The notes beneath the pieces were generated by a model. That model saw only the letters and a program-made list of their open reading frames with translations, made no database searches and had not been told where the DNA came from. Positions 9,237-24,925 of a stretch of DNA of 64,000 nucleotides are shown here, piece by piece. Numbering within the stretch: the stretch's first letter is position 1; the number at the start of each line of letters is the position of its first letter. The stretch is from Spirochaetaceae bacterium (GTDB lineage: Bacteria > Spirochaetota > Spirochaetia > DSM-2461): assembly GCA_051531975.1 (NCBI GenBank), contig JAOPTT010000006.1, forward strand, positions 654,977 through 718,976. The letters are read 5' to 3'. A program made the translations under genes and the position numbers.

Positions 9237-9879
9237 AGAATTACCAAATGCATCATTTTCAATAAAGAAACCTCAATTACTGGAATTTCCATCATTTGCA
9301 GTATAAGAGACAAATTTAATCTCAAATACTAGCTATCTAAAAGTAATGAAATGAAAAATTCTGGTTAGTGATAGTAATGATGTCCAAACTTAGCCATAGC
9401 TATCAGATTATTTAACATAAAAATGTAACGACCATAAACACCTAATTATATAGATAACCTAAAATATTCATCTGGTGTGACCAAAACCCAAAACTGTAAT
9501 CAAAAAAAATAGATAAGTGTAAAAAGGTTCTTGGAAAGTTCGTTTCGCTAAACACGGATATATTGACCTATGATCTGATGCTGTTGGAAATCACAGGATT
9601 ATGCAGTTGGAACCTACAATTGATATTATTAAAATATCCCGGTGTTATTTAGTATACAGCCAAACTCATATTTGATAATTACTTTATTACCATCAACTGG
9701 ACTAACAACAGTGCCAATGAGATAAATCTAAATATCAGATAAGCATTATTCAAGGTTGGTCAAAGATTATTTTTTGATGTGGATAAACTATTAAACATAA
9801 TTATAGATCTCTGTAGCTATTATCTAAGTAGGTACAGTATAAGAAATAAGAATCACTCGAGGTGGAGGGTTATTTTAAT

Positions 9880-10037
9880 TGTGAACAAAATTGTGAACAA
9901 AAAAAATACAAAACTGTACAAAAGCAGACAAACCCATATAAATCAAAATGTTTTAAATCCTTTTAATATATAAAGTTATACAAAACAGTACAAAGCTATA
10001 CAAATAATGATATCAGGTTCGATTCCCTCCACCTCCA
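9880..10037 (+). repeat. att-like unit 1 (arm plus tmRNA 3'-end core)
   Basis: TGTGAACAA x2 (9880, 9892); phased motifs at 9907/17/27/37 and 9969/79/89/99; core GGTTCGATTCCCTCCACCTCCA at 10016-10037. Confidence 0.85.
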
Positions 10038-10045
10038 AAAACAAG

Positions 10046-10093
10046 ACTCTTGTAATTCTATATACAGAAAAGAATTACAAGAGTTTTTCTTTT
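10046..10093 (+). terminator. Intrinsic terminator following core 1
   Basis: Perfect 14-bp stem ACTCTTGTAATTCT (10046-10059) / AGAATTACAAGAGT (10071-10084) plus T-tract. Confidence 0.8.
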
Positions 10094-10107
10094 GATACAT
10101 ATTCAAA

Positions 10108-10215
10108 TGTAGCCAATACTGTAGCCAATACCTAAATAAAGATGGACTGAAACTGTATTTTAAGCAGTCTAGAGGCTAAAAAAAGTATAGGATTCTCAGT
10201 TCAACCCTCCACCTC
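10108..10215 (+). repeat. Downstream arm with secondary degenerate core (module 1)
   Basis: TGTAGCCAA x2 (10108, 10120), ending in AACCCTCCACCTC; homologous to 20732-20839. Confidence 0.8.
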
Positions 10216-10288
10216 TGAATTAATATAATTTATATTCTGCTATTTTGTGATCTGCAAATTCAAAAAGTTATAATTTAGTAGAAATAAG

Positions 10289-11191
10289 TTATTTACACCT
10301 AAACCCACATTCTTTATTTATGTTGTTATTATTTAATCCCATAAAATTGATTGGAGTATTGGGAAACTCTATTAATAGATTATTAAACTTATTAATAAAT
10401 TCATCATACTCATCTAATGGTTTTATAAGTTCACCTATTATATCCAATATTATGATTATTTTTTTTCTTTGCTTAGTGCTATATATTCTTTGCATATTTT
10501 TAGTAATTGAAGGTTTTATTGTGAGTGATGAATTCCAAAGCCTACCGTGATGGGCACAAATATTTCTTATTGTAGTAATCGATTGAACCCAGGACTCTAA
10601 TAAAAATGGTTTAACTCTGAAATAATTTGCTATATTTTTTTTTACATCCTTATTTTCTAATGATTTATATATTTTTGACCAGCTCCCAAAAGATATTACC
10701 TCAATTAACATCCATGATGCAGGTATTTTGGGTTCAGTATATTTATCTATGTAATTTTTTATAAAAATCTCATTGCTTCTTTTAATTTCTCTCCCAATAT
10801 CTAAAATAAATTTTTCATGATCAAACTGTGCATTTACATGTTTTTTTGATAATGGCCAATGAGAATCTTTACTGTTTAATGACATATGTAAATTTAGTTG
10901 AGTCCGAAATGCTACTTCTATATGGGTAATTGCATCAAATAATATAGTTCTTAACTTATCATCAAAATTATACAGATCAACTACATTTTTAAAATCTGTA
11001 TTTTTTTTATATTTATGGGTTCTCTTCCTATCTTCAAAAATTTCATAGTGTAAAGCATATCCAACAAATCTATAATAGCTTACTTTATTTAGAAACTTCG
11101 TTGCAAAATCTCTATTGGAGATTACCATACCTCTAGACTCTAATATATTAAGTTGTTCTTCAATGTTTGTTGGAGGTGAATTATATTTGAT
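10289..11191 (-). CDS. abiF: AbiF (Abi_2/AbiD-F family) HEPN toxin
   Basis: 'FLNKVSYYRFVGY', 'LYNFDDKLR', 'IEVAFRTQL', 'SFGSWSKIY', HEPN 'IRNICAHHGRLW'. The frame extends upstream of the track's ATG through 'PPTNIEEQLNILESRG', so the start is probably non-ATG near 11191. Confidence 0.85.
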   Translation of the reverse strand: MKYNSPPTNIEEQLNILESRGMVISNRDFATKFLNKVSYYRFVGYALHYEIFEDRKRTHKYKKNTDFKNVVDLYNFDDKLRTILFDAITHIEVAFRTQLNLHMSLNSKDSHWPLSKKHVNAQFDHEKFILDIGREIKRSNEIFIKNYIDKYTEPKIPASWMLIEVISFGSWSKIYKSLENKDVKKNIANYFRVKPFLLESWVQSITTIRNICAHHGRLWNSSLTIKPSITKNMQRIYSTKQRKKIIIILDIIGELIKPLDEYDEFINKFNNLLIEFPNTPINFMGLNNNNINKECGFRCK

Positions 11192-11214
11192 AGATATCCC
11201 CCTGTTTCATTGGT

Positions 11215-11275
11215 TATAAAAAAGAAGACCCGTTCTGGTCCGCATCGTAGAGAGGCGTAACGGGTACTGTTAATT
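11215..11275 (-). ncRNA. abiF-type RNA motif (putative RNA antitoxin / leader hairpin)
   Basis: GC-rich patch in AT-rich DNA just upstream of abiF. Minus strand reads ACCCGTT-ACGCCTCTCTACGATGCGGACCAG-AACGGGT followed by CTTCTTTTTT. Boundaries approximate. Confidence 0.7.
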
Positions 11276-11403
11276 TAATCTTAATATGGAGTGTTAAAAA
11301 TAACAACTGCTTTATATAGATATTTACTCACTATTCATGAAATTTTAATGTCAGAATTAATACAACCTTCACTAATTGCACAATCTCTCTTAAATACTAC
11401 TCA

Positions 11404-11559
11404 TGTAGCCAATATTGTAGCCAAAACCCATACAAACTGGTGCAAAACAGTACTAAACCATACAAAGTCTATGACGTTTAAGTTGCGACTCTATATAAAG
11501 TTATACAAAAGAAAGCAAAACGATACAAAACATATTGGAGGTTTCGATTCCCTCCACCT
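11404..11559 (+). repeat. att-like unit 2
   Basis: TGTAGCCAA x2 (11404, 11416); phased motifs at 11431/41/51/61 and 11494/504/514/524; core GGAGGTTTCGATTCCCTCCACCT at 11537-11559. Confidence 0.9.
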
Positions 11560-12032
11560 TCATTTCATGCTTATGTAAATCATTATATCGGATATGAATA
11601 ATCCATTTGTATATGTCCCTGCATAAACTTTAGTATCACTAACAAACAGGCAGTCCACATCATTTGTACCAAGTTGTGCAGTTTCGAAGGAATTTGTGGA
11701 TATATTGTAAATACTTAAACCCTGAAGTGTACCGATAAAAATATAATTGCCAGAGCCAGTAATATTATTAATCTGGTTATTTGTTAGACCGTCATCCGTA
11801 GTAAGGTTGTCCAATTTGTGCCACCATCGTTTGAATAAAGCAGACCATTGGAGGAAGTTCCAACGTATATATTCTGCCCAGATGCATAAACACATGTGGT
11901 AGTCACATTGGAAATAGATGTTCCTGTATATGATGTTATATCAAAAGTTTTGGAAAACGAAACATTAGGTAGGTCGGAAGTGAAAGTAATATAGATATCA
12001 TCAGAAACAGTATTTTTACTGTCTGTAACTTC
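11560..12032 (-). pseudogene. Fragment of a beta-propeller/BNR-like surface protein, frameshifted
   Basis: 'IYVGTSSNGLLYSNDGGTNWTTL', 'IFIGTLQGLSIY' and 'VYAGTYTNGLFIS' are split over two frames; the fragment ends at att core 2. Confidence 0.6.
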
Positions 12033-12290
12033 TATTAATAAATCTTTTTCCCATAACCAACTAGGATTTCCATTAGGTACATATCCATCAATGTAGGACA
12101 GAACATGCTTTCCATTCCCATCTACTCCATATGACTTAGGAACCCAATCTAAACCCTTTTTATTAACATGCAGAAGCAGATTGTGGATTGTATCTGAAGC
12201 TTCAGTTACATCTTTATAAATTAAATTATCCTTTTTAAGAGGTTTATTCATATTTCCACCCTCTAATACTTCGTATTCACTTTAATCCAT
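12033..12290 (-). pseudogene. N-terminal fragment of a phosphotransferase (APH/trifolitoxin-immunity-like)
   Basis: 'VLEGGNMNKP...TIHNLLLHV...WVPKSYGVDGNGKHVLSYIDG'. In-frame stop after the second codon; fused to unrelated sequence downstream. Confidence 0.55.
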
Positions 12291-12314
12291 TTTATCTCCT
12301 ATTGTAATTAGTAT

Positions 12315-12935
12315 TTAACCAAAGTGATGTATTGAGTAAGTATTTTCATTTGCAAACAGTTTACCAGTATTACTATCTTTAGCTGAAAAAACATCAGACT
12401 GAAATATATTTATATCATGATCTAAAACTTGATATGTGTTAGTGTCCTTCCAGCCAAAATATAATAACGTTATTTCTGATACCAATACTGAGTTTGGAAC
12501 GTCGTTATATCTACCATCTTTTAACAAAAAATCTTTTTCATCATATTCTTTTAATAGCCTGCCAATCCATGGATGATTTTTTATTGCACCAATTATTCCA
12601 GTACCTAGTAGTTTATTACCTTCATATCCAGCAAAAGCTTTAAAGTTCAATAAATCATCAAATGATTTAAGTACTTCAACATCGGTATCAAAATAAATTC
12701 CTCCCAATTTATTCAAAACATATAGCCTAACATAGTCAGTTACATAAGCATATTTTTTAGCATCATATGCCTCCGAAACAAATTTATTTGATCTGATATC
12801 AAAGTTTTCTTCATTCCATAAAACAAGTTCATATTCAGGTAAGTATTTCTTCCAGGATTTTATGCTTTCTTTTGCTTCACTCGATAATTCTCCATTACCA
12901 AACCAACAATAATGTATTTTTTTAGATATTGACAT
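12315..12935 (-). CDS. Glycosyltransferase family 32 (DXD sugar-binding)
   Basis: 'KKIHYCWFG', 'DYVRLYVLNKLGGIYFDTDVE', 'YSIHHF'; possibly C-terminally short. Confidence 0.85.
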   Translation of the reverse strand: MSISKKIHYCWFGNGELSSEAKESIKSWKKYLPEYELVLWNEENFDIRSNKFVSEAYDAKKYAYVTDYVRLYVLNKLGGIYFDTDVEVLKSFDDLLNFKAFAGYEGNKLLGTGIIGAIKNHPWIGRLLKEYDEKDFLLKDGRYNDVPNSVLVSEITLLYFGWKDTNTYQVLDHDINIFQSDVFSAKDSNTGKLFANENTYSIHHFG

Positions 12936-13043
12936 ATTTTAACTCCTTCCATATCAATTTTAGTTTGTAATATTGTTTAACCATTAAATAGTTCAGTTGC
13001 ACATCATCTTTTACGTAATTTTCACTGAGAATTTTATTTTCCT

Positions 13044-13939
13044 TTATATAATCTTCTTAATATTATTTTTTAACCGGAAGTGTGTATAGCCAGTAAAAAG
13101 TATGAAGAGAACTACCCATACTATCGTACCAGAAAAACCTGTTTCTATACCAAACTCAGTTCCTGTTATATTGCTAGAAATAGTTGACTCAGTAATAGCC
13201 CCATATAGAGTTGGTCCAATAGTTTTCCCTGAAATATTAAAAAAGCCTTCAACAACAAAATCATATGCAAAATGCAAAGATATAGGCAAAATTAAGGACT
13301 GTGTTTTGTAATATAAAAAACTAAACAACATACCTGCTACTAAAATATTTAAAAATAGCACCAATGGATTACCCTGATTCGAATTTGATACAAAAAAATG
13401 TACTAAAGAAAATATTGATGCAGAGATCAAGCATGCATTAAATGGCTTTTTAAGTATTTGTTCTAAGCGTTTTTGAAAGAACCCTCTAAAAAGGACCTCT
13501 TCTCCAACTACTGCAGCCAAACTTGTTACAAAAGCTAGAGCAACAGGGTGTATTAGATGCTGTGGCGAAAAACGATCAAGCATCCAACCAGAAACTAACA
13601 GACATTTATTCATGGTAAAAACAAGATATGCACTTGTCAGCACAAGAAATGTCCCTAAAAGTCCAACTAAAGAATCCTGAATTATAAACTTATGATCACC
13701 AAGAGCGTGAACTTTAAAGTTTTCATTTCTTGCATATCGGAAATATATAGATACAAATACAATTATGACTCCAATAGAAAAAATCCTAGGTAAAAATCCA
13801 GAGAATTCCTCAAATAGTCCAAGTCGAACTAGTGCAAATCTAGTAATAAAAGAGACAATAACTATAGAAAGTTGAGTCCCTATAAAATTACTATAAGCCA
13901 GATTATATGAAGAAGAATGTTTTTAAGTTTATTAAGCAT
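13044..13939 (-). pseudogene. CPBP (CAAX) intramembrane metalloprotease with 5' frameshift
   Basis: 'EEVLFRG', 'FSLVH', 'ISLHFAYD'. The ATG at 13939 with RBS is out of frame with the long hydrophobic frame (shift near 13885). Confidence 0.65.
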
Positions 13940-14012
13940 TTTATTCCTTTTGAAAAATTTAAATCTTACTGTATATAACACGCAAATACTGTGTAAATGT
14001 TACTTAAAATTA

Positions 14013-14552
14013 TTACCAGTATTCAGGTTTATTTATAGCATCAACACAGAATGAATTATCAGTAATAGATTGGATTTTATCACTTACCAAAGACTGTGCT
14101 AACCAACCTTCTGGATACTCAAGTTTTAAAGGAGCTTTCACAATTTTTTCAGATATTTTATTGTACCCAACTTTTGAGTAAAAATTAATATCACCATAAG
14201 TAAAAACCTGTTCTACATAATTTCCTTTTAAATCCTTGTGACCAAAATTAATCAATTTTTGACCTATTCCTTTTTTTTGATAATCTGAATGGATAGCCAC
14301 TGGAGCTAATAAAAATGTATTAATTTTACACTCTTCAAACTTCAACCTGGAAAAGAGAATACAGCCTATAATTTTTTTATCATCAATAGCGATATAAACA
14401 TGTAGATCATTTTTATCTGTTTTAGTCATTAATTCAAAAGCTAAGTTTCCTATTAACATTCCTTCTTCAACACCTTCAGAATCTGAAAATGTCTTGATAA
14501 ATAACTCTTGTATTTTCTCTATGTTTTCTGATTTATAATTTGAAAATTCCAT
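14013..14552 (-). CDS. GNAT N-acetyltransferase (YhbS-like)
   Basis: 'LLAPVAIHSDYQKKGIGQKLI', 'YGDINFYSKVGY'. Confidence 0.85.
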   Translation of the reverse strand: MEFSNYKSENIEKIQELFIKTFSDSEGVEEGMLIGNLAFELMTKTDKNDLHVYIAIDDKKIIGCILFSRLKFEECKINTFLLAPVAIHSDYQKKGIGQKLINFGHKDLKGNYVEQVFTYGDINFYSKVGYNKISEKIVKAPLKLEYPEGWLAQSLVSDKIQSITDNSFCVDAINKPEYW

Positions 14553-14615
14553 TCGATATCCTTCTTATATTATTTAATTATTGAAAATGATAACTTATAC
14601 TCATTCCATGAAGAT

Positions 14616-15396
14616 CTACTTTTGTGAAAAGATCCAGTCTGCTACCTTTTTATTAACAATGTCTGGATTTTCCCATAAAGGGAATCCCCCTGCATTAGGA
14701 ATAATAATACTTTCAACCATTTCATTTTTATCTAATAAGTTCCTCATTCCATGAAATTCAGTCATATCGTAATTACCATTATATGCTAATATCGGTAATT
14801 TTAATTTTTTTAATTGATTAATGATATCCATAGTATCTTTAGTTTTTTTTTCAGATAACCAAGGTTTCCCACTAAATGATTGAAGAATTTTAAGATGATC
14901 TTCTGATCTTGTTTCTTTTGGGTTACGTCGCATATATTTTTGGGTTACGTCGCATATATTCAAACCATTCCGAATGTGTAAACCAATTATTAATAGCCTC
15001 ATCAATTCCTTTCTCAAAAATTATAGACCTGGCTCTATTTATATTTTTATTAAATCCAGGAATTACGACACCCTCGAATATAAACAGTCTTATACTGAAT
15101 ACTTTTTTTAAATATAAATTAAGACCAATTGCTGTACTTGTATGAGTCCCCCAATATATGAAATCATCAATTATTAGATATTTTAATAATTCTATAATAT
15201 CTTCAGTGTATTCTTCTATTCCAAATGGACCATCATGTTCTGAATTACCATGCCCTCTTAGATCTAATGTTAAGCAGTTGAAACTATCCCTAAAAAACTC
15301 AATTTGTTTGTTAAATATGGCCAGATTCTGTGTAAAACCGTGTACAAACACAATTGTCTGTTTTTGGTTATTATTTTCAAAATTATAATTTATCAA
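14616..15396 (-). pseudogene. Alpha/beta hydrolase frameshifted by a 22-bp tandem duplication
   Basis: 'VFVHGF', 'LDLRGHGNS'. TTTTGGGTTACGTCGCATATAT is duplicated at 14916-14937 and 14938-14959. Confidence 0.85.
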
Positions 15397-15570
15397 TGAG
15401 TCCTCATAAATGTAAAGTTTACATTTTACTTCTTTAATATTAGATATTTTATTACTATTTTTTAATAAGGAAAACCATTTTTTATTGGTTTAAATAGTAT
15501 ATGCATAATAAGATCTTATATATCTTCTTAAAACAGTATCATTTTTGGATTGATTCACATTTGATATTTG

Positions 15571-15630
15571 GTTGTCCATGCAACAATTGACATATCCTGT
15601 AATAAGGGCTAATTTAGTTATACAGACAAC
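15571..15630 (+). promoter_or_regulatory. Sigma70 promoter flanked by two putative MarR operators
   Basis: TTGACA (15587)-17 bp-TAATTT; dyads GTTGTCCATGCAAC (15571) and GTTATACAGACAAC (15617). Confidence 0.6.
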
Positions 15631-15645
15631 TAAAAAGGTTTATAA

Positions 15646-16086
15646 ATGATAAAAGTAAATGATTCAATATATTTTAATATTTCACGGGTGGCTCTTTTAC
15701 TAAGGAGAGATTTTCTGCAAAATCTTAAAGAATTTAATATTACTCCTGAGCAGTGGTCAATAATGGCTTTTCTTAATGAAAAACAAAAGCCAATATCACA
15801 AAAGTCGATAGTAGAACATTTACTAAAAGATAAACATGCTGTTTCAAAAATGATTAATAAAATGGTAAAAAAAGAGTGGATAATAAAAGAAGCTGATATT
15901 AATGATAGCCGAGTAACACTGATATCTTTGACTAAAAAGGGAACTGAAGATATGCATACAATTGGAAATGTTCTATCCAAGTCTCAGCATAATAGAGAAT
16001 ATAATATGTTTCCTAATGAAGAGAAGAAGATGATTCTTAACTTTTTAAAACAAATTAGGATATTTTTTAATGATATAAAGGAGTAA
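15646..16086 (+). CDS. MarR family regulator
   Basis: 'ITPEQWSIM', 'DKHAVSKMINKM', 'DSRVTLISLTKKG'. Confidence 0.9.
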   Translation: MIKVNDSIYFNISRVALLLRRDFLQNLKEFNITPEQWSIMAFLNEKQKPISQKSIVEHLLKDKHAVSKMINKMVKKEWIIKEADINDSRVTLISLTKKGTEDMHTIGNVLSKSQHNREYNMFPNEEKKMILNFLKQIRIFFNDIKE

Positions 16087-16088
16087 TT

Positions 16089-16382
16089 ATGAATCCACTA
16101 AAAACAGTACAGGATCTAGATCCGGAATTAACTAAGATAATGGAAGATTCCAGATTATTGGCATTTACGGAAGGATCATTAGATTTAAAAACTAAATATC
16201 TAATTGGTTTGTCCATAGATGCAACGAAAGGTACTCCTGAGGGAGTTAGAAGTTTAGCAATACAGGCATTAAAAAACGGAGCAACAAAAGATGAAATCAA
16301 AGAAGTAATAAGAATTGTATATCTAATTAATGGTGTTAGCAGCATGTATCCAGTATCAATTGGTCTCAAAGATTTAATATAG
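16089..16382 (+). CDS. Carboxymuconolactone decarboxylase (CMD/AhpD-like) protein
   Basis: 'GSLDLKTKYLIGLSID', 'ALKNGATKDEIKEVI'. Confidence 0.85.
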   Translation: MNPLKTVQDLDPELTKIMEDSRLLAFTEGSLDLKTKYLIGLSIDATKGTPEGVRSLAIQALKNGATKDEIKEVIRIVYLINGVSSMYPVSIGLKDLI

Positions 16383-16490
16383 GAATATTTTAAATAATTA
16401 TTAACTAATTAAATTTCTAAAAAAAATGTTTCCAAGGGTAACATAATCCCTGGGAACACATCTATATCAATTTGAGAACTGGTAGAATAA

Positions 16491-17846
16491 TTACAGAATT
16501 CGATTATGTTTAATAACATTTTTATAATACTCTGCACTCAATTTAGGAGTTCTTTTTTGATTTTCAAAATTAACATAAACCAGACCAAAACGTTTGGTAT
16601 ACCCTTCAGCCCATTCAAAATTATCTAAAAAGCTCCAAACAAAATATCCTTTTAATGGATACCCTTCTTCTATTGCCCTTGATGCACCTATAAAATGATT
16701 ACGAAGATAAAAAATACGGTCTGTATCTAAAACCTCTCCATCTTTATTTAGTTTATCATTACAGGCACTACCACTTTCTGTAACATATATACTTTTAACA
16801 TCCCATAGCTCATTAACATAGCGTGTACTCCAGTAGATAGTTTCAGGACCAACCTTAATCCATGGAAGATCCATTGAAGGATGCGATGGTGCAAAGTCAA
16901 CAACATTATACCCTTTAGCAGAATTCTTATCTGCTCTTATATAGGTTGGATAATACATATTGATGCCTAAGTAATCTATAGGAGCATTTATTAACTTCAT
17001 CTCATCCAGTGTATAATCAGGAGCATTATCCCCTTCTTCTTCAAGATACTTTTTAGAATATGAACCCTCTAGAAGAGGAGAAAGGAATGATCCATTTATA
17101 TCATGAAAAGCTTGTTTGGCAGCAGCAATATGCTCTTCTGTTTCAAAAATTGGAACACAATTATATGGATTATCAGAAAGTCCAACCTTAATATCACCTT
17201 TTGCATTTTCCCGTAGTGCTTTAAGAGCATAGCCATGCCCCAAAAGTCCATTATGAAAAACCTGGTTTACTTTAGCTCTTGAGAGTGTTTTACCAGGAGC
17301 AAAGACTCCATCTCGATAACCTAACTCTGCAATGCATATATAATCATTTAGTGTATAATAATTTTTTAGTCTATCTGATAACCGTTCAGATATGATACCA
17401 GCATAGTCACCAAAATATTTTGATGTCTCTTTTGATTCCCATCCACCATATTGATCTTCTAATACCTGTGGCAGATCCCAATGAAATAGTGTTGCACAGG
17501 GTTCTATGTTAGCTTCCAGAAGAGAATCTACAAGGCGGCTATAATAATCTATTCCCTTTTCATTAAATTCTCCTTTCCCATTGGGAAAGACTCGGGGCCA
17601 AGATATAGAGAATCTATAAGATTTTAATCCCATATTCTTCATTAAAACAATATCATCTTTGTAGAGATTATATTGATCACAGCTTATATCACCATTATGA
17701 TCACTTTTAATTTTCCCTGGTATATGAGAGAAAGTATCCCAGATAGATTTACCCCTACCATCAATATTAACAGCACCCTCAACTTGATATGCTGACGTAG
17801 AACATCCCCATAAAAAATCTTTTGGCATTTTATATGACTTACTCAT
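16491..17846 (-). CDS. GH1 beta-glucosidase
   Basis: 'FLWGCSTSAYQVEG', 'YRFSISWPR', 'TLFHWDLPQ', 'YVTESG', 'WSFLDNFEW'. The acid/base motif reads TLND rather than TLNE. Confidence 0.9.
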   Translation of the reverse strand: MSKSYKMPKDFLWGCSTSAYQVEGAVNIDGRGKSIWDTFSHIPGKIKSDHNGDISCDQYNLYKDDIVLMKNMGLKSYRFSISWPRVFPNGKGEFNEKGIDYYSRLVDSLLEANIEPCATLFHWDLPQVLEDQYGGWESKETSKYFGDYAGIISERLSDRLKNYYTLNDYICIAELGYRDGVFAPGKTLSRAKVNQVFHNGLLGHGYALKALRENAKGDIKVGLSDNPYNCVPIFETEEHIAAAKQAFHDINGSFLSPLLEGSYSKKYLEEEGDNAPDYTLDEMKLINAPIDYLGINMYYPTYIRADKNSAKGYNVVDFAPSHPSMDLPWIKVGPETIYWSTRYVNELWDVKSIYVTESGSACNDKLNKDGEVLDTDRIFYLRNHFIGASRAIEEGYPLKGYFVWSFLDNFEWAEGYTKRFGLVYVNFENQKRTPKLSAEYYKNVIKHNRIL

Positions 17847-18355
17847 ATAGACTCCTATTTAGTATTGTAATCATAGATTTTTATTATTTAGATGTAAATA
17901 TTAAATGGATCATAATTTATTTACTGCCATCGATATTCATTATCAATGAGTTATACTGTCCAATTTAAGAAATATATATAAGTGATTAATATGAAACTTT
18001 ATACTTTTGTTTATCGAGCCATTGATGTCCATATACAATAAAACCTTCTCTACCATTGAATCTATCAACCCCAAAAATTGAGCCTTGATTTTTATCTAAA
18101 AATCGGAGCTTTAATATAAGCTGTTCATCTTTCCTTTTAAGATTTATTAATTTAATATGATTTTGAAGTACTTCATGAAAAACTATTGGATTAGTCTTTT
18201 CTGATTTTTAGTGTTTAAGATATCTTAATAATTACCTAAAACGGATTTAATATTGTTGTTCATAATATAGTCCAGGGTTTCAATTGAAAACTCAGCTCTT
18301 GTTATCATAAACAATAAGTCTAGACATCAACATTTCCTAAAAAATTTATTTGAAA

Positions 18356-18817
18356 TTAATTAATTGGAATAAAGATATCAATTTCAGATTTACTACTATT
18401 CCAATTAAAACGATTATCATATCTTTCATAATGTACCATAGGTCTATCTAAGTTTAGCTTAAAACTATTTTTTGGCAATATGTCTTTATATATATCAAAA
18501 TATGTAAATTTTAACTTATTCATGTCTCCACAATGAACAAACTTAACGTATTTATTTTTAGGTATAACATATTGCTTTAAATTTACAGAATCTATAATTG
18601 GTACTGAAGGCATATAAAAATAACTATTATTCTTTTTGAATGTTAATCCGTATTTTTCCCAATTATGATCAATACGCCTTTTTATAGTATTAAACATACT
18701 ATTAACTTTTTCCCAATGGTTAGATATGATTCTTTGATTTTCTGTTTGAGACTTAGTAAGTAAAACAGGTAAACCTTCTACTTCTTTTTTATCTATTTCT
18801 AATATTTCCCAATTCAT
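18356..18817 (-). CDS. GyrI-like small-molecule-binding protein
   Basis: 'IPKNKYVKFVHCG', 'YERYD', 'IDIFIPI'. Confidence 0.8.
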   Translation of the reverse strand: MNWEILEIDKKEVEGLPVLLTKSQTENQRIISNHWEKVNSMFNTIKRRIDHNWEKYGLTFKKNNSYFYMPSVPIIDSVNLKQYVIPKNKYVKFVHCGDMNKLKFTYFDIYKDILPKNSFKLNLDRPMVHYERYDNRFNWNSSKSEIDIFIPIN

Positions 18818-18899
18818 TTACTAAAGTTCCTACCAACTGATAATAAAACAATCGTTTATTTTAATCAAATTCACCAATTATCAGCCCACTGTTATGTGC

Positions 18900-19300
18900 A
18901 ATATAGACAGTTTCTCCATCACAAAACACTCCATTTGCTGAAATATTTGGGAACGACGTATACCTGTCTACTTCAACATCTTGCCAATTTAATCCATCAT
19001 CGGCCGAAATCTACAGTTTCCCACCATATTTAACACATACCAAGTATGTTCCATCATTGGCAAACCCCATTATTGAACCACCACCAAGAGTATAATAGTC
19101 ATCAACAAAAGTCTCTCCTGAATCTGTAGATCTAGAATAGTAGGTGTCGATAGCTGCAACAACAGTACTTCCTGAAACATATAATAATTTCATATCTGGA
19201 GTATAATCCGAATAAGCAACTACTAAAGTGTCAGCATTTGAATAATCCAGGTTTAAAGTGGTTAAAATATGATCACCAGCAACATACAAGGTTGATGTAT
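18900..19300 (-). pseudogene. Fragment of a BNR-like surface protein
   Basis: 'YYSRSTDSGETF'; the downstream part continues in another frame ('ISADDGLNWQ'). Boundaries approximate. Confidence 0.4.
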
Positions 19301-19495
19301 AAATAATTAATCGTATAAGAACTTTGGTATAGATTTTTACAATCACCTTTAATTATCTAAGGGATTTCATCCCTTTATTAGTTTGAAATTCACCACAATA
19401 TATCTATCTTGTTTATCTCTGACTATTAATATATAGAAATCTTTAATCTAATTGACCAGCCACTATAAAGACTATAAAGACTATAAAATTAGAGT

Positions 19496-19654
19496 ATGAT
19501 TAAGAAATCTTTTGAAGAGAAAGTTGAATTTATTAAAAAGAGTAGACTTAAAAATTACAAAGAGAGTTTAAGGCTTGAAGGTCTAAATCCCTCTGTTCAC
19601 CTCCATGGAAAAACTCGAGCAGAGATAATATCATATTATACACACAAGAAATGA
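19496..19654 (+). CDS. FicA/YhfG-like antitoxin (52 aa, below the track cutoff)
   Basis: MIKKSFEEKVEFIKKSRLKNYKESLRLEGLNP... carries the (S/T)xxxE(G/N) inhibitory motif and overlaps the fic start by ATGA. Confidence 0.8.
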   Translation: MIKKSFEEKVEFIKKSRLKNYKESLRLEGLNPSVHLHGKTRAEIISYYTHKK

Positions 19655-20243
19655 AATCTATAAAGTATGGTACTGATGAAGATCCATATAGCTATAAAGA
19701 TACTGACATATTAATTAATAAACTGGATATAAGATCTAATATCACATTAGAAAATATTGAAGAAGAGATTTCTACCTTAGCTGTAGGTGAAATTGATTTT
19801 GCAACTCCTCCCTATAATTCTAAATATTGGCAGAACATTCATGAAATACTATTTAAGGACTTATATAATTGGGCTGGAGAGTTTCGAACAGTTCATATTA
19901 CTAAAGGTTCAACAGTCTTTTCAATCCTCTATATATAGATCAGGAGTTAAATAGGATTTTTACTGACTTAAGTAGAAATAAATATTTTGTAGATTTACCA
20001 GTTGCACTATTAGTTACGAACATAGCATAATTATATATTGAGTTGAATATAATTCATCCTTTTAGAGAAGGGAATGGACGTTCTCAGCGCATATTATTTG
20101 ATCATATGTTAGCAAACTGTGGATATAAAATTGATTGGGGTAAAATATCAAAAGATCACTGGTTAGAAGCTAATATTTGCAGAGTAGACCTTAACTACAA
20201 GCCAATAGAAAATATTATGTCGGATTGTTTAGTAGAGTTTTAA
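19651..20243 (+). pseudogene. FicT-like adenylyltransferase toxin, disrupted
   Basis: 'DPYSY', 'IHEILFKDLYNWAGEFRTVHITKG', 'HPFREGNGRSQR'; split by a frameshift and a stop around 19920-20030. Confidence 0.85.
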
Positions 20244-20502
20244 TTATTTGGTGTATAAAATTACATTTCTAATTTCCTAGGGAGTTAATTATCCTAGCTC
20301 TATCCACAAACCCCTAACATATACTTCTAATGAAACCAAAACAAATGCATTTAATGTTCTAGTTGCTATCACATTCAATTTGTAAACTCCTAATAATATT
20401 ATGCAATATGAATATCAACAATAATATATCAATTTGCGATATTATTTCTAATTATTTTATTAAATCTTTCTATTTCTTAGTGTCCTTATGTTATCTCTTT
20501 TG

Positions 20503-20661
20503 TGTGACCAAAACTGTGACCAATTGAAATACAAAGCCGTACTAAACCATACAAAGCGATACAAAGAGTCGACGACCTAAGTTACTAAAGGGTATAAAGT
20601 TATACAAAGAGAGACAAAACCGTACAAATAAAAGACGAGGATTCGATTCCCTCCACCTCCA
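20503..20661 (+). repeat. att-like unit 3
   Basis: TGTGACCAA x2 (20503, 20515); phased motifs at 20530/40/50/60 and 20593/603/613/623; core GACGAGGATTCGATTCCCTCCACCTCCA at 20634-20661. Confidence 0.9.
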
Positions 20662-20669
20662 AAAACTAG

Positions 20670-20718
20670 ACTCTTGTAATTCTATATATACAAAAGAATT
20701 ACAAGAGTTTTTCTTTTT
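20670..20718 (+). terminator. Intrinsic terminator following core 3
   Basis: Same 14-bp stem as at 10046 (20670-20683/20695-20708) plus T-tract. Confidence 0.8.
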
Positions 20719-20731
20719 ATAAATATTTCAA

Positions 20732-20839
20732 TGTAGCCAGTATGTAGCCAATACGAATAGAAAATGGTCGTTGAAACAGCATTTAAAGCACTCTAGAAGC
20801 TTAAAAAAGTACAATATTCCCAGTGTAACCCTCCACCTC
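20732..20839 (+). repeat. Downstream arm with secondary degenerate core (module 2)
   Basis: TGTAGCCA(G/A) x2 (20732, 20743), ending in TAACCCTCCACCTC; homologous to 10108-10215. Confidence 0.8.
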
Positions 20840-20916
20840 TTGCTATGTAAAAGCAGTTAGTATATTAACTGCCTACAGAATCTATCTATGATGGACCATA
20901 TTGTCTAGACTAAATG

Positions 20917-21270
20917 TCAGCCACAAATCTTAATTTGTTTTTCTTTATTATATAAATTATAAAAATATGCTTCATCTGGTGTTCTTTTCCTAAGGGAATT
21001 ATGTGGTCTTCTTAAGTTGTATTTATCAATATATCTATTAATTCCTTGAATCGCTTCTATTGGATTTTCATAATCTTTTAAATAAACTTCTCCATATTTT
21101 AATGTTTTCCAGAATCTTTCGATTGTGATACTTTCTGATTCAGAAGTATCTGGGAAAAATAATCCTAAACAGCGGAATATAATTTTTACAATACTGATAG
21201 GCATATCTCTAAATACAACATCAAACATTAGGATAGCCATTGGAGTTCCTTGATTAGATATAAACATCAT
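20917..21270 (-). mobile_element. IS3-family transposase C-terminal remnant
   Basis: 'IERFWKTLKYGEVYLKDY...YIDKYNLRRPHNSLRKRTPDEAY'; N-terminus missing. Confidence 0.8.
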
Positions 21271-21351
21271 ATATAACTAGCTAATAAAAACTTCCTATAA
21301 CATATAAAATTTAGAATTGTAATAAAGCATTATCCACTATATTATAAGTAT

Positions 21352-21669
21352 ATGAATCAGGATAAAAAATTAGAAAAAATCAAGGACATAATAGTCGAAA
21401 CTGTACATCCAGATAAAATTATACTTTTTGGATCACGAGCCAATGGTACAAATAAAGACGACAGTGACTATGATATCTTTATACTAAAAAATGGTATTAC
21501 TAATGAAAGAACCATAATTGGTGATGTCAATGTTGCCCTATTTAGGAATCATATTATTGATGATATTGATATTGTCGCAGCTAATCCTGAAAAATTTGAA
21601 AAACACAAAAACAATGACTATTTAGTTTATAAAGATATTTATAACCAGGGAATAACTATTTATGGATAA
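21352..21669 (+). CDS. Minimal nucleotidyltransferase (MNT)
   Basis: 'IILFGSRANGTNKDDSDYDIFI' (GS...DxD). Confidence 0.9.
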   Translation: MNQDKKLEKIKDIIVETVHPDKIILFGSRANGTNKDDSDYDIFILKNGITNERTIIGDVNVALFRNHIIDDIDIVAANPEKFEKHKNNDYLVYKDIYNQGITIYG

Positions 21670-22042
21670 GAGCATTGATCCAAAAGAATGGTTGAACAGA
21701 GCTTATGGTTGTTTGCTAAGGGCGAGAAAACCTATTGAAGAAGGTATGTACTATGAAGACTTCTGCTATGACTGCCAGCAAGCAGCTGAAAAAGCTCTTA
21801 AAGCCCTAATCGTTAGATTAGGTCTAGATCTACATAGAACCCACTCTTTTAGAAAACTTCTTAACGAATTAACAAAAAGAATAATTATTCCTGAATCAAT
21901 ATTTGATGTTCTTAAAATTGAAGTATATGCAGTAACAACAAGGTACCCAGATGATTTTATTGAAGTATCTGAAAATGAATATAGAGAAGCATTAGAAATT
22001 GCTCAAAGAGTATATGACTGGACTTCAGAAAATATAAAATAA
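21662..22042 (+). CDS. HEPN domain protein, partner of the MNT
   Basis: 'CYDCQQAAEKALKAL', 'RTHSFRKL', 'YAVTTRYP'; overlaps the MNT stop. Confidence 0.9.
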   Translation: MDKSIDPKEWLNRAYGCLLRARKPIEEGMYYEDFCYDCQQAAEKALKALIVRLGLDLHRTHSFRKLLNELTKRIIIPESIFDVLKIEVYAVTTRYPDDFIEVSENEYREALEIAQRVYDWTSENIK

Positions 22043-22273
22043 ACTTCTATAAAATCTTACCTTTAGATGAATATAACCATTATTATTGTTTAAACCTTGT
22101 ATTAGATAAATACTAAAAAGTTACGAATTCCGTAAATTTACTAAATTCGAATCACTTCAGGTGTAGAGTTACGTTTCATTGTAACCAAAATTGGATAGCC
22201 ACAACCACTCTATTGTTCATTATGATGCAGTATTGTTTCCTAGAAAGCGAAAGTACTATGTAATCTTGTCAAA

Positions 22274-22432
22274 TGTAGCCAATATTGTAGCCAAAACCCA
22301 GACAAACTGATACAAAACAGTACTAAACTATACAAAGTCTAAGACATCTAAGTTACTAATCTGTATAAAGTTATACAAAATAAAGCAAAGCGATACGAAA
22401 GCTATTGGAGGTTTCGATTCCCTCCACCTCCA
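22274..22432 (+). repeat. att-like unit 4
   Basis: TGTAGCCAA x2 (22274, 22286); phased motifs at 22301/11/21/31 and 22364/74/84/94; core GGAGGTTTCGATTCCCTCCACCTCCA at 22407-22432. Confidence 0.9.
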
Positions 22433-22434
22433 TT

Positions 22435-22770
22435 TTAAGACTTATATAAATCTTTTATTGAAGTGATTAGCGTTGGAATTGTTCTTGAAACAGTTGTCCA
22501 AATTATTTCATAATCAACAACATCATAACCATGAATTAATCGATCCCTCATACCAGCCATAGCTTTCCATGGAATACTTTTATTTGATTCTCTAAAATCA
22601 TCAGGGATTCGCTTACTAGCTTCACCAATAATCTCCAAACATCTTATTACTGCAAATTGAGTTTTTTCATCGTATTTGAACTCATCTTTTGATAGTCCCT
22701 TTATAAACTCTTGGGTTAATTCCATAGATTTTAAAATATCGTTAAGATAGACCTTAAAATCTTTTTTCAC
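22435..22770 (-). CDS. hepT: HepT-like (DUF86) RNase toxin
   Basis: 'LEIIGEASKRIP', 'IPWKAMAGMRDRLIHGY' (Rx4HxY). Confidence 0.9.
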   Translation of the reverse strand: MKKDFKVYLNDILKSMELTQEFIKGLSKDEFKYDEKTQFAVIRCLEIIGEASKRIPDDFRESNKSIPWKAMAGMRDRLIHGYDVVDYEIIWTTVSRTIPTLITSIKDLYKS

Positions 22771-23063
22771 AGATATTGAACCTCAGATAATATAGATTCA
22801 TTAATTATAGGTTTGAGTGAAGATTTTAGGACGAGATCAACTGTAGTATTTAGATCTTCAGTAAGTTCCTGCTCTAATGTAATAAGATCAAAAAGATCCA
22901 TTTTCGAGGGCCTAGACAAATCAATGAGTATATCAACATCACTGTTAGCATTTTCTTCACCTCTTACATAAGATCCAAAGATACCTATTTCACTAATACC
23001 TGATTCTAGTAATCTCTTTTTCTTTTTAAGAAGTGTATCTTTGATGATGTTTAAGTCTGTCAT
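22767..23063 (-). CDS. mntA: MntA-like adenylyltransferase antitoxin
   Basis: 'IFGSYVRGEENANSDVDILID' (GSx10DxD); 4-nt overlap with hepT. Confidence 0.9.
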   Translation of the reverse strand: MTDLNIIKDTLLKKKKRLLESGISEIGIFGSYVRGEENANSDVDILIDLSRPSKMDLFDLITLEQELTEDLNTTVDLVLKSSLKPIINESILSEVQYL

Positions 23064-23191
23064 ATATCCCTCTTACTAATATTATACTACTGCTAATTTT
23101 ATTTAAATAGAAGTAATTAAAATTTTACTTGTCTATTCAAACCTAATATTGAATTATCTACTGCAGATGTCATTAGTGCACATACTGTAAA

Positions 23192-23348
23192 TGTAGCCAA
23201 TATTGTAGCCAAAACCAATTCAAAATGGTACAAAACAGTACTAAACTATACAAAGTCTATGGCTTCTAAATTACGACTCTATATAAAGTTATACAAAATA
23301 AAGCAAAGACATACGAAAGATATTGGAGGTTTCGATTCCCTCCACCTC
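23192..23348 (+). repeat. att-like unit 5
   Basis: TGTAGCCAA x2 (23192, 23204); phased motifs at 23219/29/39/49 and 23282/92/302/312; core at 23325-23348. Confidence 0.9.
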
Positions 23349-23381
23349 TAAAGATGTACTTTTTTTATTTAAACAATCTAA

Positions 23382-23484
23382 GTAGCCAAAACAAATTCAA
23401 AGGCATACAAAACCGTACTAAGCGATACAAAAATAAAGGCACCTACCCCTACACAGTATATAAAGTCATACAAAACCATATTAA
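23382..23484 (+). repeat. Partial att-like unit 6 (arm only, core lost)
   Basis: Single GTAGCCAA; phased motifs at 23396/406/416/426 and 23459/69/79; no TTCGATT core. Confidence 0.75.
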
Positions 23485-23536: not shown

Positions 23537-24925
23537 TTATACGTCTTTATATGCTTTTACAAGTTGTTCCATAGCACTTCTACCATCACCAAAAAACATT
23601 AAAGTATTATCTGCAATGAATAGTGGATTAGGAATGCCGGCAAAACCAGGTCTTAAACTTCTTTTTATAACTATAACTGTTTTAGCACTATCAACATTTA
23701 AAATAGGCATACCTGATATCGGATTATTCTCTTCACGGGATATTGGATTTACAACATCATTCGCTCCAAGAACAATTACTACATCCATATCTTTAAATCT
23801 TGGATTAATAATATCAAGCTCCAGTAATTTGTCGTAAGAAATATTCTCTTCTGCAAGTAGAACATTCATATGACCAGGCATCCGTCCTGCTACGGGGTGA
23901 ATGCCAAATACAACATTAACACCTCTTTTCTCAAGATCTTCTGAAAGGATACGAACCATACCCTGAGCGTGGGCTACTGCCATACCATACCCAGGAACAA
24001 ATGCAACATTTCTTGCTGATTCTAAAAGCATAGCAATCTCTTCGGCTGATGTCGATTTTGTTTTACCACTATATATGTCCCCTTCATCCACCTGTTTGAT
24101 AATTGCACCAATTCCTCCAAAAAGAACATTAGAAAGAGATCTATTCATAGCTTTACACATTATTCTCGTCAAAATAATACCCGATGCTCCTACTAGTGCT
24201 CCAGCGATTATAAGAACATGATTTGAAAGTACAAAACCAGTAGCTGTAGCAGCTAAACCTGAGTAAGAATTTAGAAGTGCTATAACTATTGGCATATCTG
24301 CACCACCAATTGCAATTACAAGAAAAATACCTAATAGCCCTGCTATTGCTACTAAAACCCAATAATATATTGTTTGATCAGGTTTCTTAATTATAAGAAC
24401 TCCAACAATTATAGACATTAGAAACAGTAGTATTTTTACAGACTGTTCAAGTTTGTATCTAACTGGTTTATCACTTACTATTCCTTGAAGTTTTCCAAAA
24501 GCGATAAAACTTCCTGTAAAAGTAACAGAACCTATTAATCCAGATATTACAACAGAAATTAATAATAAATTGGATGGATTCATACCTGGAAGAGAATACT
24601 CAATTAAAACAGCACCAGCAACTAGAAGTGAAGCTCCTCCACCTAATCCATTAAATAGACCAACCATTTGTGGCATAGCTGTCATTTTAATTTTTACAGC
24701 TGAAATAACTCCAATAACCGAGCCAATTAGTATCCCTAATATAATCAGGTCGTAGCTAATAATCTGTCTGTTCAACAAAGTAATTATTATAGCCAATAAC
24801 ATTCCAACTGCACCCAAAAAGTTTCCACGTACAGCACTTTTGGGATGAGATAATCCCTTTAATCCCAAAATAAACAGTGTTGCTGATAGTAGATAAATAA
24901 AGTTCACAAACGCGGGTGATATCAT
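23537..24925 (-). CDS. pntB: NAD(P) transhydrogenase beta subunit
   Basis: 'MPQMVGLFNGLGG', 'PGYGMAVA', 'HPVAGRMPGHMNVLLAE', 'GANDVVNP'. Confidence 0.97.
   Translation of the reverse strand: MISPAFVNFIYLLSATLFILGLKGLSHPKSAVRGNFLGAVGMLLAIIITLLNRQIISYDLIILGILIGSVIGVISAVKIKMTAMPQMVGLFNGLGGGASLLVAGAVLIEYSLPGMNPSNLLLISVVISGLIGSVTFTGSFIAFGKLQGIVSDKPVRYKLEQSVKILLFLMSIIVGVLIIKKPDQTIYYWVLVAIAGLLGIFLVIAIGGADMPIVIALLNSYSGLAATATGFVLSNHVLIIAGALVGASGIILTRIMCKAMNRSLSNVLFGGIGAIIKQVDEGDIYSGKTKSTSAEEIAMLLESARNVAFVPGYGMAVAHAQGMVRILSEDLEKRGVNVVFGIHPVAGRMPGHMNVLLAEENISYDKLLELDIINPRFKDMDVVIVLGANDVVNPISREENNPISGMPILNVDSAKTVIVIKRSLRPGFAGIPNPLFIADNTLMFFGDGRSAMEQLVKAYKDV

Follow-up and report, generated by a model that had tools for sequence, protein, structure and literature searches.

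What kind of element repeatedly ends in the same fragment of a transfer-messenger RNA (tmRNA) gene, and does it still move? The question is raised by positions 9859-23484 of a 64,000-nt stretch of a Spirochaetaceae bacterium genome (G000:C6:654977-718976; hereafter the window, in whose positions all array coordinates are given), where co-oriented non-coding units divide the DNA into segments carrying abortive-infection (Abi) and toxin-antitoxin genes. The original prediction described an integron-like array of cassettes captured, excised and reshuffled by a single integrase. We find the window best explained as the far, older end of a ~86-kb composite island that grew as elements integrated site-specifically, one after another, into the 3' end of the tmRNA gene ssrA. 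The probable history of the array is tandem accretion at this gene with later decay into integrase-less relics of the cis-mobilizable element (CIME) type, in which Abi and toxin-antitoxin modules were kept.

The units were located by repeat search and by an nhmmer profile, built from five full units, run over the whole genome. Both confirmed five co-oriented units (described earlier as ~157 bp, here ~160 bp, all on the + strand; E 2e-45 to 5e-32) and a sixth lacking the core (E 1e-10). The 5,457,215-bp assembly contains the core, the exact 17-mer TTCGATTCCCTCCACCT, six times, always on the + strand of contig C6. One copy ends ssrA; the others, one per unit in units 1-5, form co-oriented direct repeats 72.8-86.1 kb downstream of the gene. 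As had been predicted, the core is thus the 3' end of this genome's own ssrA, which lies complete on the + strand 62.7 kb left of the window (C6:591850-592230, ARAGORN) and is adjoined by a tyrosine integrase gene. The match covers the last 17-20 bases of ssrA; units 1, 3 and 4 follow it through ...CACCTCCA, units 2 and 5 differ at that end (Table 1), and in unit 3 the identity reaches GACGAGG. Three units had been credited with a full CCA ending; units 1, 3 and 4 do match the ssrA end, but by the ARAGORN gene end these last bases are acceptor strand and discriminator, with no encoded terminal CCA. Neither ARAGORN nor Rfam at its gathering threshold found a tRNA or tmRNA gene in the window, and the units are therefore fragments, not genes. 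The whole-genome profile search revealed no scattered copies of the kind left by miniature inverted-repeat transposable elements: every match with E<2 lies inside the ssrA island, and the only matches outside it have E 4.9 and 7.2. The units are confined to the ssrA locus.

The integrase gene (C6:592333-593457; 374 aa; PF00589, 2.4e-14) starts 102 bp after ssrA and is the only one of its clade in a genome-wide search of G000, where PF00589 gave five matches, four of them above the cut-off. Its product looks intact and lambda-like. Residues R222, K254, H321, R324 and Y356 are conserved across 14 homologues, and the AlphaFold model (predicted local distance difference test 82.9) contains an N-terminal three-strand-plus-helix domain (strands 13-17 and 23-28, helix 45-57). 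The closest folds are those of full-length lambda integrase chains (E 4.6e-11 across 375-389 columns, 17-19% sequence identity); a sequence search of PDB chains with the integrase returned no match. The stretch of ~73 kb between the integrase and unit 1 carries defence and mobile-element genes.

All full units are built alike. Each opens with two 7-mers in tandem, spaced by one helical turn. Behind them come four RTACWAA-type repeats at 10-bp intervals; after a spacer of ~22 bp another four follow, among them the invariant TATAAAGTTATACAAA, and the unit closes with the T-loop, T-stem and acceptor strand of ssrA. The window contains 96 RTACWAA matches (76.6 +/- 8.6 in shuffles), 28 of which fall within the six units, all on the + strand. 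We interpret each full unit, from its arm and core, as an attR-type attachment (att) site. The genome has 12 occurrences of TGTRNNC repeated after 3-7 nt, eight of them in the island and all eight on the + strand: one between the ssrA terminator and the integrase start (attL) and seven at unit starts. These seven include two short degenerate units, absent from the earlier list, which both come after a core and a hairpin terminator. The 7-mers are of three types (Table 1), and arm identity is 63-72% between the three lineages and 83-90% within them (units 2, 4 and 5 mutually 86-88%; unit 1 against its counterpart in the relative G001, 83%). Only unit 1 carries the 7-mer found beside the resident integrase, TGTGAAC. 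As this pair recurs where the ssrA terminator gives way to the integrase gene, unit 1 is taken as the attR of a ~73-kb integrase-bearing element starting at ssrA. Judged by the 7-mer pair, the sole feature that tracks integrase identity, most units appear to have no cognate integrase in the cell; the resident integrase may nevertheless recognise other arm classes. Grouping unit 3 with the G001 island, which has the same TGTGACC, was rejected, the arms being only 68% identical, and unit 3 was kept as a separate lineage.

Comparison with 38 genomes of the order, searched for units with a sequence-only profile of seven units, placed these sites within a wider family. Integrase homologues at E <= 1e-20 were present in 19 of the 38. 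Those at least 54% identical all lie directly after ssrA (G001, G008, G041 and G018), as does a decayed copy in G016, and more distant homologues come after tRNA-Met, tRNA-Pro or tRNA-Ala. The order gene end, hairpin terminator, tandem pair of 7-9-mers and integrase start recurs in 10 of 11 tRNA- or tmRNA-gene loci; the pair is exact in six and imperfect in four, and no clear pair was seen at the G016 locus, with its decayed integrase. Units were found in eight of the 38 genomes, with seven matches in G000 and one or two in each of the others, and every arm lineage of the array has counterparts elsewhere. In the five islands where both ends are readable, the 7-mers on the integrase side and on the far side (attR) change together: TGTGAAC and TGTGAAC in G000, GTGACC and TGTGACC in G001, TGTAGCC and TGTAGCC in G018 (another genus of the family), TGTAGAC and TGTAGAC in the tRNA-Ala island of G002, and TTTGMACAG and TTTGATCAG in G041. 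Such co-variation between island ends is the behaviour expected of arm-type integrase sites, and the 7-mers would be bound by the integrase N-terminal domain. A full-text literature search returned no description of this particular integrase/att family.

From these elements the following scheme can be proposed. A single family of lambda-type tyrosine integrases would act on an attP ordered as 7-mer pair, phased RTACWAA/A-tract repeats and a core of ssrA T-arm and acceptor strand, continuing past the core into a hairpin terminator, a second tandem 7-mer pair and the integrase gene. Each integration would restore ssrA with the core and terminator of the incoming element and leave an arm plus the displaced core (attR) at the far end, so that later arrivals would push earlier elements outward. 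The segments between cores would then be the remains of earlier elements that lost the integrase and most of their content, retaining their att sites together with cargo that stabilises itself or is under selection (AbiF and its RNA, MNT-HEPN and HepT-MntA). The order of the integration events follows from this scheme and would place the outermost segments earliest. With no integrase in this genome to match their arm class, the relics would by now be largely sedentary.

Gene decay is apparent across the array. A Fic/VbhT-like adenylyltransferase gene adjoining unit 3 is in two pieces (19651-19935 and 20043-20240, +) covering the N-terminal residues ~2-90 and the C-terminal residues ~131-192 of the family model; an alpha/beta hydrolase is split (14616-15396); beta-propeller fragments at 11560-12251 run into core 2; and the fragment of an insertion sequence (IS) of the IS3 family comprises only the last ~50 residues of its transposase, between units 3 and 4 (20840-22271). 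Immediately 3' of core 2, 16 of 18 nt agree in register with the 5' half of T1, the ssrA terminator, a score reached by 0 of 500 and 2 of 500 shuffles with two references; core 4 is followed by a weaker T1-like match (p about 0.02). Unit 6, the last element of the array (E 2.1e-9 with the seven-unit profile), lacks a core, and so does the G001 copy of unit 2. The segments also have the traits of CIMEs, with att sites on both sides and no integration or transfer genes of their own. Scans with Pfam (39 open reading frames (ORFs), 38 within the window and one straddling its left edge) and NCBIfam detected no tyrosine or serine recombinase, relaxase or type IV secretion system gene in 9859-23484; only the IS3 fragment was found, which agrees with the predicted lack of a recombinase. 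The terminator remnant and the broken genes favour derivation by deletion; the integrase-less backbone shared by two segments could equally mean integrase-free propagation.

Several observations weigh against accretion followed by decay. The five cores are intact over 17 nt though the arms differ by up to 37%, so the sites could have been kept functional. Segments 10037-11560 and 20661-22431, bounded on both sides by the TGTAGCC pair, have left modules 84% and right units 88% identical around unrelated cargo, and look like one integrase-less backbone used twice, not like independent decays. Segment edges are tidier than random deletions would give, the hepT stop codon lying 3 nt past core 4 and another ORF stop overlapping core 2. 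No empty ssrA site that would set the outer limit of the island was found among the relatives: the G001 site is also occupied by an island, ssrA was not found in the 71%-complete G003 genome, and the pntB flank had no DNA match in G001-G003. Finally, contigs of four sequencing runs were compared at 85% likeness. One run, probably that of the source sample, contained 96% of the sampled words (5-9% in the other three); in it, minor contig joints connect 20598 to 22416 (unit 3 to the sequence after core 4) and 10093 to 22268 (the terminator after core 1 to unit 4). These and a third joint, 22383 to 20614, have short sides of 27-52 nt. The first two forms have depths of ~11-12, against ~33-37 for the main form. 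The joints may hint at array variants at units; with sides of 27-30 nt for two of them and 85% likeness, they may also be artefacts of repeats or other strains. Contig depth drops right of 23242, a change that is not interpretable.

The intact cores and the repeated backbone are what lend substance to the first alternative, which we regard as unlikely: that TGTAGCC-class segments are non-autonomous, integrase-less elements moved in trans by a visiting integrase of matching class, with cargo swapped, making the ssrA locus a reservoir of exchangeable defence and toxin-antitoxin modules. Such elements would consist of a left end with terminator and 7-mer pair and a right end with full arm and core, and the 7-mer pair would be the address code to the integrase. 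Segments 10037-11560 and 20661-22431 have this structure, the left module and Abi_2 recur in G001, and G018 encodes a TGTAGCC-class integrase with a matching attR. Related units, together with hepT-mntA and HEPN genes, also occur at 90-100% identity in other marine samples, on short contigs of low depth. However, the TGTAGCC-class integrase is absent from this genome, no unit copy lies outside the ssrA locus, and segments 11561-20660 and 22432-23348, although bounded by two cores like every other, lack the left module and bear arm repeats on the right side only. Pattern scans of other contigs likewise yielded no related unit. Two scans of metagenome contigs gave 0 matches, in a set from which the records of this genome or its near relatives may be absent, and the unit-plus-core pattern gave none in genome contigs either. 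A second scan of genome contigs, for the TGTAGCC pair, returned 85 stretches in unrelated taxa, which were rejected as chance matches (80 fetched, 0 units by profile, median GC 60%). The comparison with G001 is also unfavourable. The two genomes share a block of unit, core, terminator, short unit, Abi_2 and unit 2 that is 82-88% identical, in which the G001 unit 2 is internally deleted and coreless; the homology breaks ~33 nt before TTCGATT, so the sole comparable breakpoint is not at the crossover site.

The original model, in which the one integrase beside ssrA captures, excises and reshuffles all cassettes in the manner of an integron, is highly improbable. An apparently intact enzyme does adjoin ssrA, core and overall arm design are the same in all units, and the minor contig joints, weak as they are, would fit rearrangement. 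Yet the units differ in the very 7-mers that in five islands change together with the integrase, only unit 1 matches the resident enzyme, and the arms are only 63-72% identical between lineages; one integrase for all units does not fit. Active reshuffling fares no better, given the pseudogene-rich segments with their split and truncated genes, the terminator remnant after core 2 and the break away from the crossover site. Integrons and clusters of attC sites lacking integron-integrases (CALINs) are arrays of small modules with a recombination site at one end of each and cargo enriched in toxin-antitoxin and defence genes. The present array resembles them in its small modules with their own end sites and in its cargo, but it has no IntI, no attC-type hairpin and no attI or Pc by the array, and its genes lie in both orientations. 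The integrase, 72-86 kb from the units, scores 23.1 bits against TIGR02249 (IntI), far below the cut-off of 265, and the single-stranded folds of the five units are no better than those of 200 shuffles each (z -1.47 to +1.44), as expected from the correct earlier statement that attC sites are absent.

Least probable of all is local segmental duplication with unequal homologous recombination between units and no separate integrations: the core-terminator-short-unit module is indeed duplicated at 84-92% identity, 160-bp direct repeats suit unequal exchange, and the succession of core, terminator and unit, seen three times, could stem from recombination between element-end 7-mer pairs, but no DNA similarity could be detected among the cargoes of the four segments, the three arm lineages have different 7-mers and counterparts in other genomes, and units 1 and 3 are not the closest relatives of other units in the array.

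Accretion followed by decay thus remains the preferred account, and with it the supported portion of the original prediction: arm-bearing att sites in tandem accretion, delimiting integrase-less segments with Abi and toxin-antitoxin cargo. The features of the array are collected in Table 1.

Table 1. Coordinates of att-site units, associated repeats and genes in the array, in window positions.
Feature	Position	Strand	Characteristics and evidence
Unit 1	9879-10036	+	TGTGAAC x2; nhmmer E 5e-32
Unit 2	11401-11560	+	TGTAGCC x2 lineage; core end TCA; nhmmer E 2.4e-45
Unit 3	20500-20660	+	TGTGACC x2, own arm lineage; nhmmer E 3.5e-39
Unit 4	22272-22431	+	TGTAGCC x2 lineage; nhmmer E 6.5e-45
Unit 5	23190-23348	+	TGTAGCC x2 lineage; core end CTA; nhmmer E 1.5e-44
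Unit 6	23382-23479	+	Coreless arm relic, single TGTAGCC; nhmmer E 1.1e-10, profile positions 18-115
Short degenerate unit 1	10103-10216	+	TGTAGCC x2 ... CCCTCCACCTCT; repeat families D4, D6; nhmmer partial, E 0.0098
Short degenerate unit 2	20727-20840	+	TGTAGCC x2 ... CCCTCCACCTCT; repeat search
Hairpin terminator copy 1, T3 type	10037-10093	+	Directly 3' of core 1; repeat family D5
Hairpin terminator copy 2, T3 type	20661-20717	+	Directly 3' of core 3; repeat search
Inverted copy of the 3' part of the core (AGGTGGAGGG)	9860-9869	+	Outer edge of unit 1; read directly
Abi_2 (AbiF-like) abortive-infection gene	10289-11128	-	PF07751, E 2.2e-53
abiF RNA motif	11228-11264	-	RF03085, full length 1-37, 30.9 bits, E 0.035
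Mixed segment, 9 kb	11561-20499		Intact-looking genes and several broken ones; Pfam, NCBIfam
IS3-family transposase C-terminal fragment	20917-21270	-	rve_3, 8.3e-10; NF033516 positions 317-368 of 369 only
MNT (nucleotidyltransferase) and HEPN gene pair	21352-22042	+	PF18765, PF01909; PF05168, 1.7e-26
hepT-mntA toxin-antitoxin pair	22435-23063	-	PF01934, 1.2e-29; PF01909, 8.3e-14
pntB	23537-24925	-	PF02233, 9.1e-176

The division of the cargo by the cores, including abiF with its RNA, MNT-HEPN and hepT-mntA, had been read from the ORFs, and these calls hold with Pfam, Rfam and NCBIfam. The Abi_2 gene has an ortholog at the same place in G001 (82% DNA identity). The abiF RNA, upstream of it on the same strand, scores below the gathering score of 37 bits, and its sequence is conserved in G001. 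NCBIfam matches of HepT and MntA fall below their cut-offs for the hepT-mntA pair. Intact-looking genes of the mixed segment encode a glycosyltransferase, a CAAX protease and GNAT, MarR, CMD, GH1 and GyrI-like proteins. Its glycosyltransferase (12315-12935, -) is a 206-aa DXD protein (Gly_transf_sug) with a short, weak similarity to the TcdA/TcdB catalytic domain over ~26 residues round the DXD, and looks like an ordinary sugar transferase. The left module after core 3 is 84% identical overall to that after core 1; the terminators within these modules are 92% identical, and the same terminator is conserved after the G001 core. To the right, ~86 kb from ssrA, the array gives way to pntB, the first housekeeping-type gene, followed by pntA parts and lon; the unit profile found no further units beyond pntB.

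Other observations concern the edges of the array and the resident element. An inverted copy (AGGTGGAGGG) of the last 10 nt of the core borders unit 1 on its outer side; it also precedes the G001 unit (L018:13874-13887) but not the G002 unit. About 350 bp left of unit 1, at 9478-9530, lies another degenerate arm-like relic (GTGTGACCAAAAC... followed by an A-rich stretch; repeat family D7), and given this relic the 73-kb element may itself be composite. Genes in its part outside the window (C6:592231-654976) encode a type I restriction-modification system, a KAP NTPase, a metallophosphatase-STAND NTPase, a TPR-metallo-beta-lactamase protein, Mrr, HNH, a Panacea-domain antitoxin, ArdC, three RadC paralogues, a single-stranded DNA-binding protein and a DUF5906 protein. 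Directly after the integrase gene lies a coreless inverted arm relic (C6:593511-593638, - strand; L001:5511-5638) that begins with the pair TGTAGACAC/TGGACACAC, of the TGTAGAC type seen in tRNA-Ala and tRNA-Pro islands of relatives. It was rejected as a required P' arm, being missing after the integrase in G001, G008 and G041; this lack of conservation and its TGTAGAC-type pair make it a relic of another element. For the tmRNA itself ARAGORN reported "Tag not identified" and printed an odd tag; by eye, the frame AKKEDEVIICLGDSVSLAIAA* is homologous to the tags of G001 and G002.

Signs of decay extend to the relatives. The G001 orthologue of the integrase (L022, G001:C1:158540-159663; 80% identity) is split into two overlapping frames and is probably a frameshifted pseudogene. 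In G045 (L144, G045:C10:98501-106500), a 5.7-kb stretch with IS21 IstB and IS3 transposase genes separates ssrA from a full attR unit; none of its 10 scanned ORFs is a tyrosine integrase, and no ssrA-adjacent integrase of this clade was found in that genome, where the best match (27% identical) lies beside tRNA-Pro. In G002 the tRNA-Ala integrase is followed by an inverted unit, which is the attR of a convergent island of the ssrA type. In addition, 18-nt T-arm-like matches cluster by two or three, 100-250 bp apart, in G002:C231, G018:C385, G041:C2, G045:C6 and G021:C2, and some of them adjoin tRNA genes.

The closest precedents are tandem islands at tmRNA and tRNA genes. In Dehalococcoides, the account of ssrA islands by McMurdie et al. 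(2011, PMC3146451) describes multiple tandem islands within 100 kb downstream of ssrA, each bounded by a 20-bp ssrA repeat and inserted at the T-loop, and suggests that islands without an integration module are cis-mobilizable elements. The present array shares the tandem islands less than 100 kb from ssrA, the T-loop insertion and the integrase-less members, and on the strength of that account the proposed new, integron-like category falls away. It differs in its recombination system, with a lambda-type tyrosine integrase and a ~140-bp phased-repeat arm in place of the large serine recombinase DsiB and 20-bp repeat described there, in its Abi and toxin-antitoxin cargo in place of reductive dehalogenases, and in host lineage. 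CIMEs, as the overview in PMC5704250 presents them, have lost integration and transfer genes, keep attL and attR, and arise by integration, decay and new integration. The streptococcal cases summarised there (Pavlovic 2004; Bellanger 2011) likewise comprise relics and a functional element arranged in tandem at the 3' end of the targeted gene; their cis-mobilisation was shown experimentally, whereas the array described here is known from sequence. As compared with those cases, it comprises four cargo segments and three cargo-less relics (two short units and unit 6), in three arm classes mostly without a cognate integrase in the cell. The tycheposons of Prochlorococcus, in the description by Hackl et al. 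(bioRxiv 10.1101/2020.12.28.424599), integrate successively at tRNA and tmRNA genes, so that older elements are pushed into the island, and leave remnants with fragmented integrases and extra partial tRNAs; the likeness, drawn from that description and not from sequence, extends to the marine host, the targets, the successive integrations and the remnants. Phage lambda Int and attP (PDB 1Z1B, 1Z1G, 5J0N) resemble the predicted system in the three-domain integrase, by predicted fold, and in a core with repeated (here predicted) arm sites on both sides that differ between elements; the sequence identity, however, is only 17-19%, and there is no sequence-level PDB match.

The array is therefore of a kind already described, tandem ssrA islands with CIME-type relics, and no new gene-capture system is established. 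If the segments were instead exchangeable elements moved in trans, the ssrA locus would be a tyrosine-integrase counterpart of the integron cassette reservoir for defence and toxin-antitoxin modules. As an accretion island, the locus offers a natural example of a defence-rich region growing at a tmRNA gene, in which Abi and toxin-antitoxin modules and att sites survive decay. What it adds is the att design of this integrase family, with a 7-mer pair on both arms that changes per island together with the integrase, making arm-site specificity and the cross-mobilisation of integrase-less relics directly testable.

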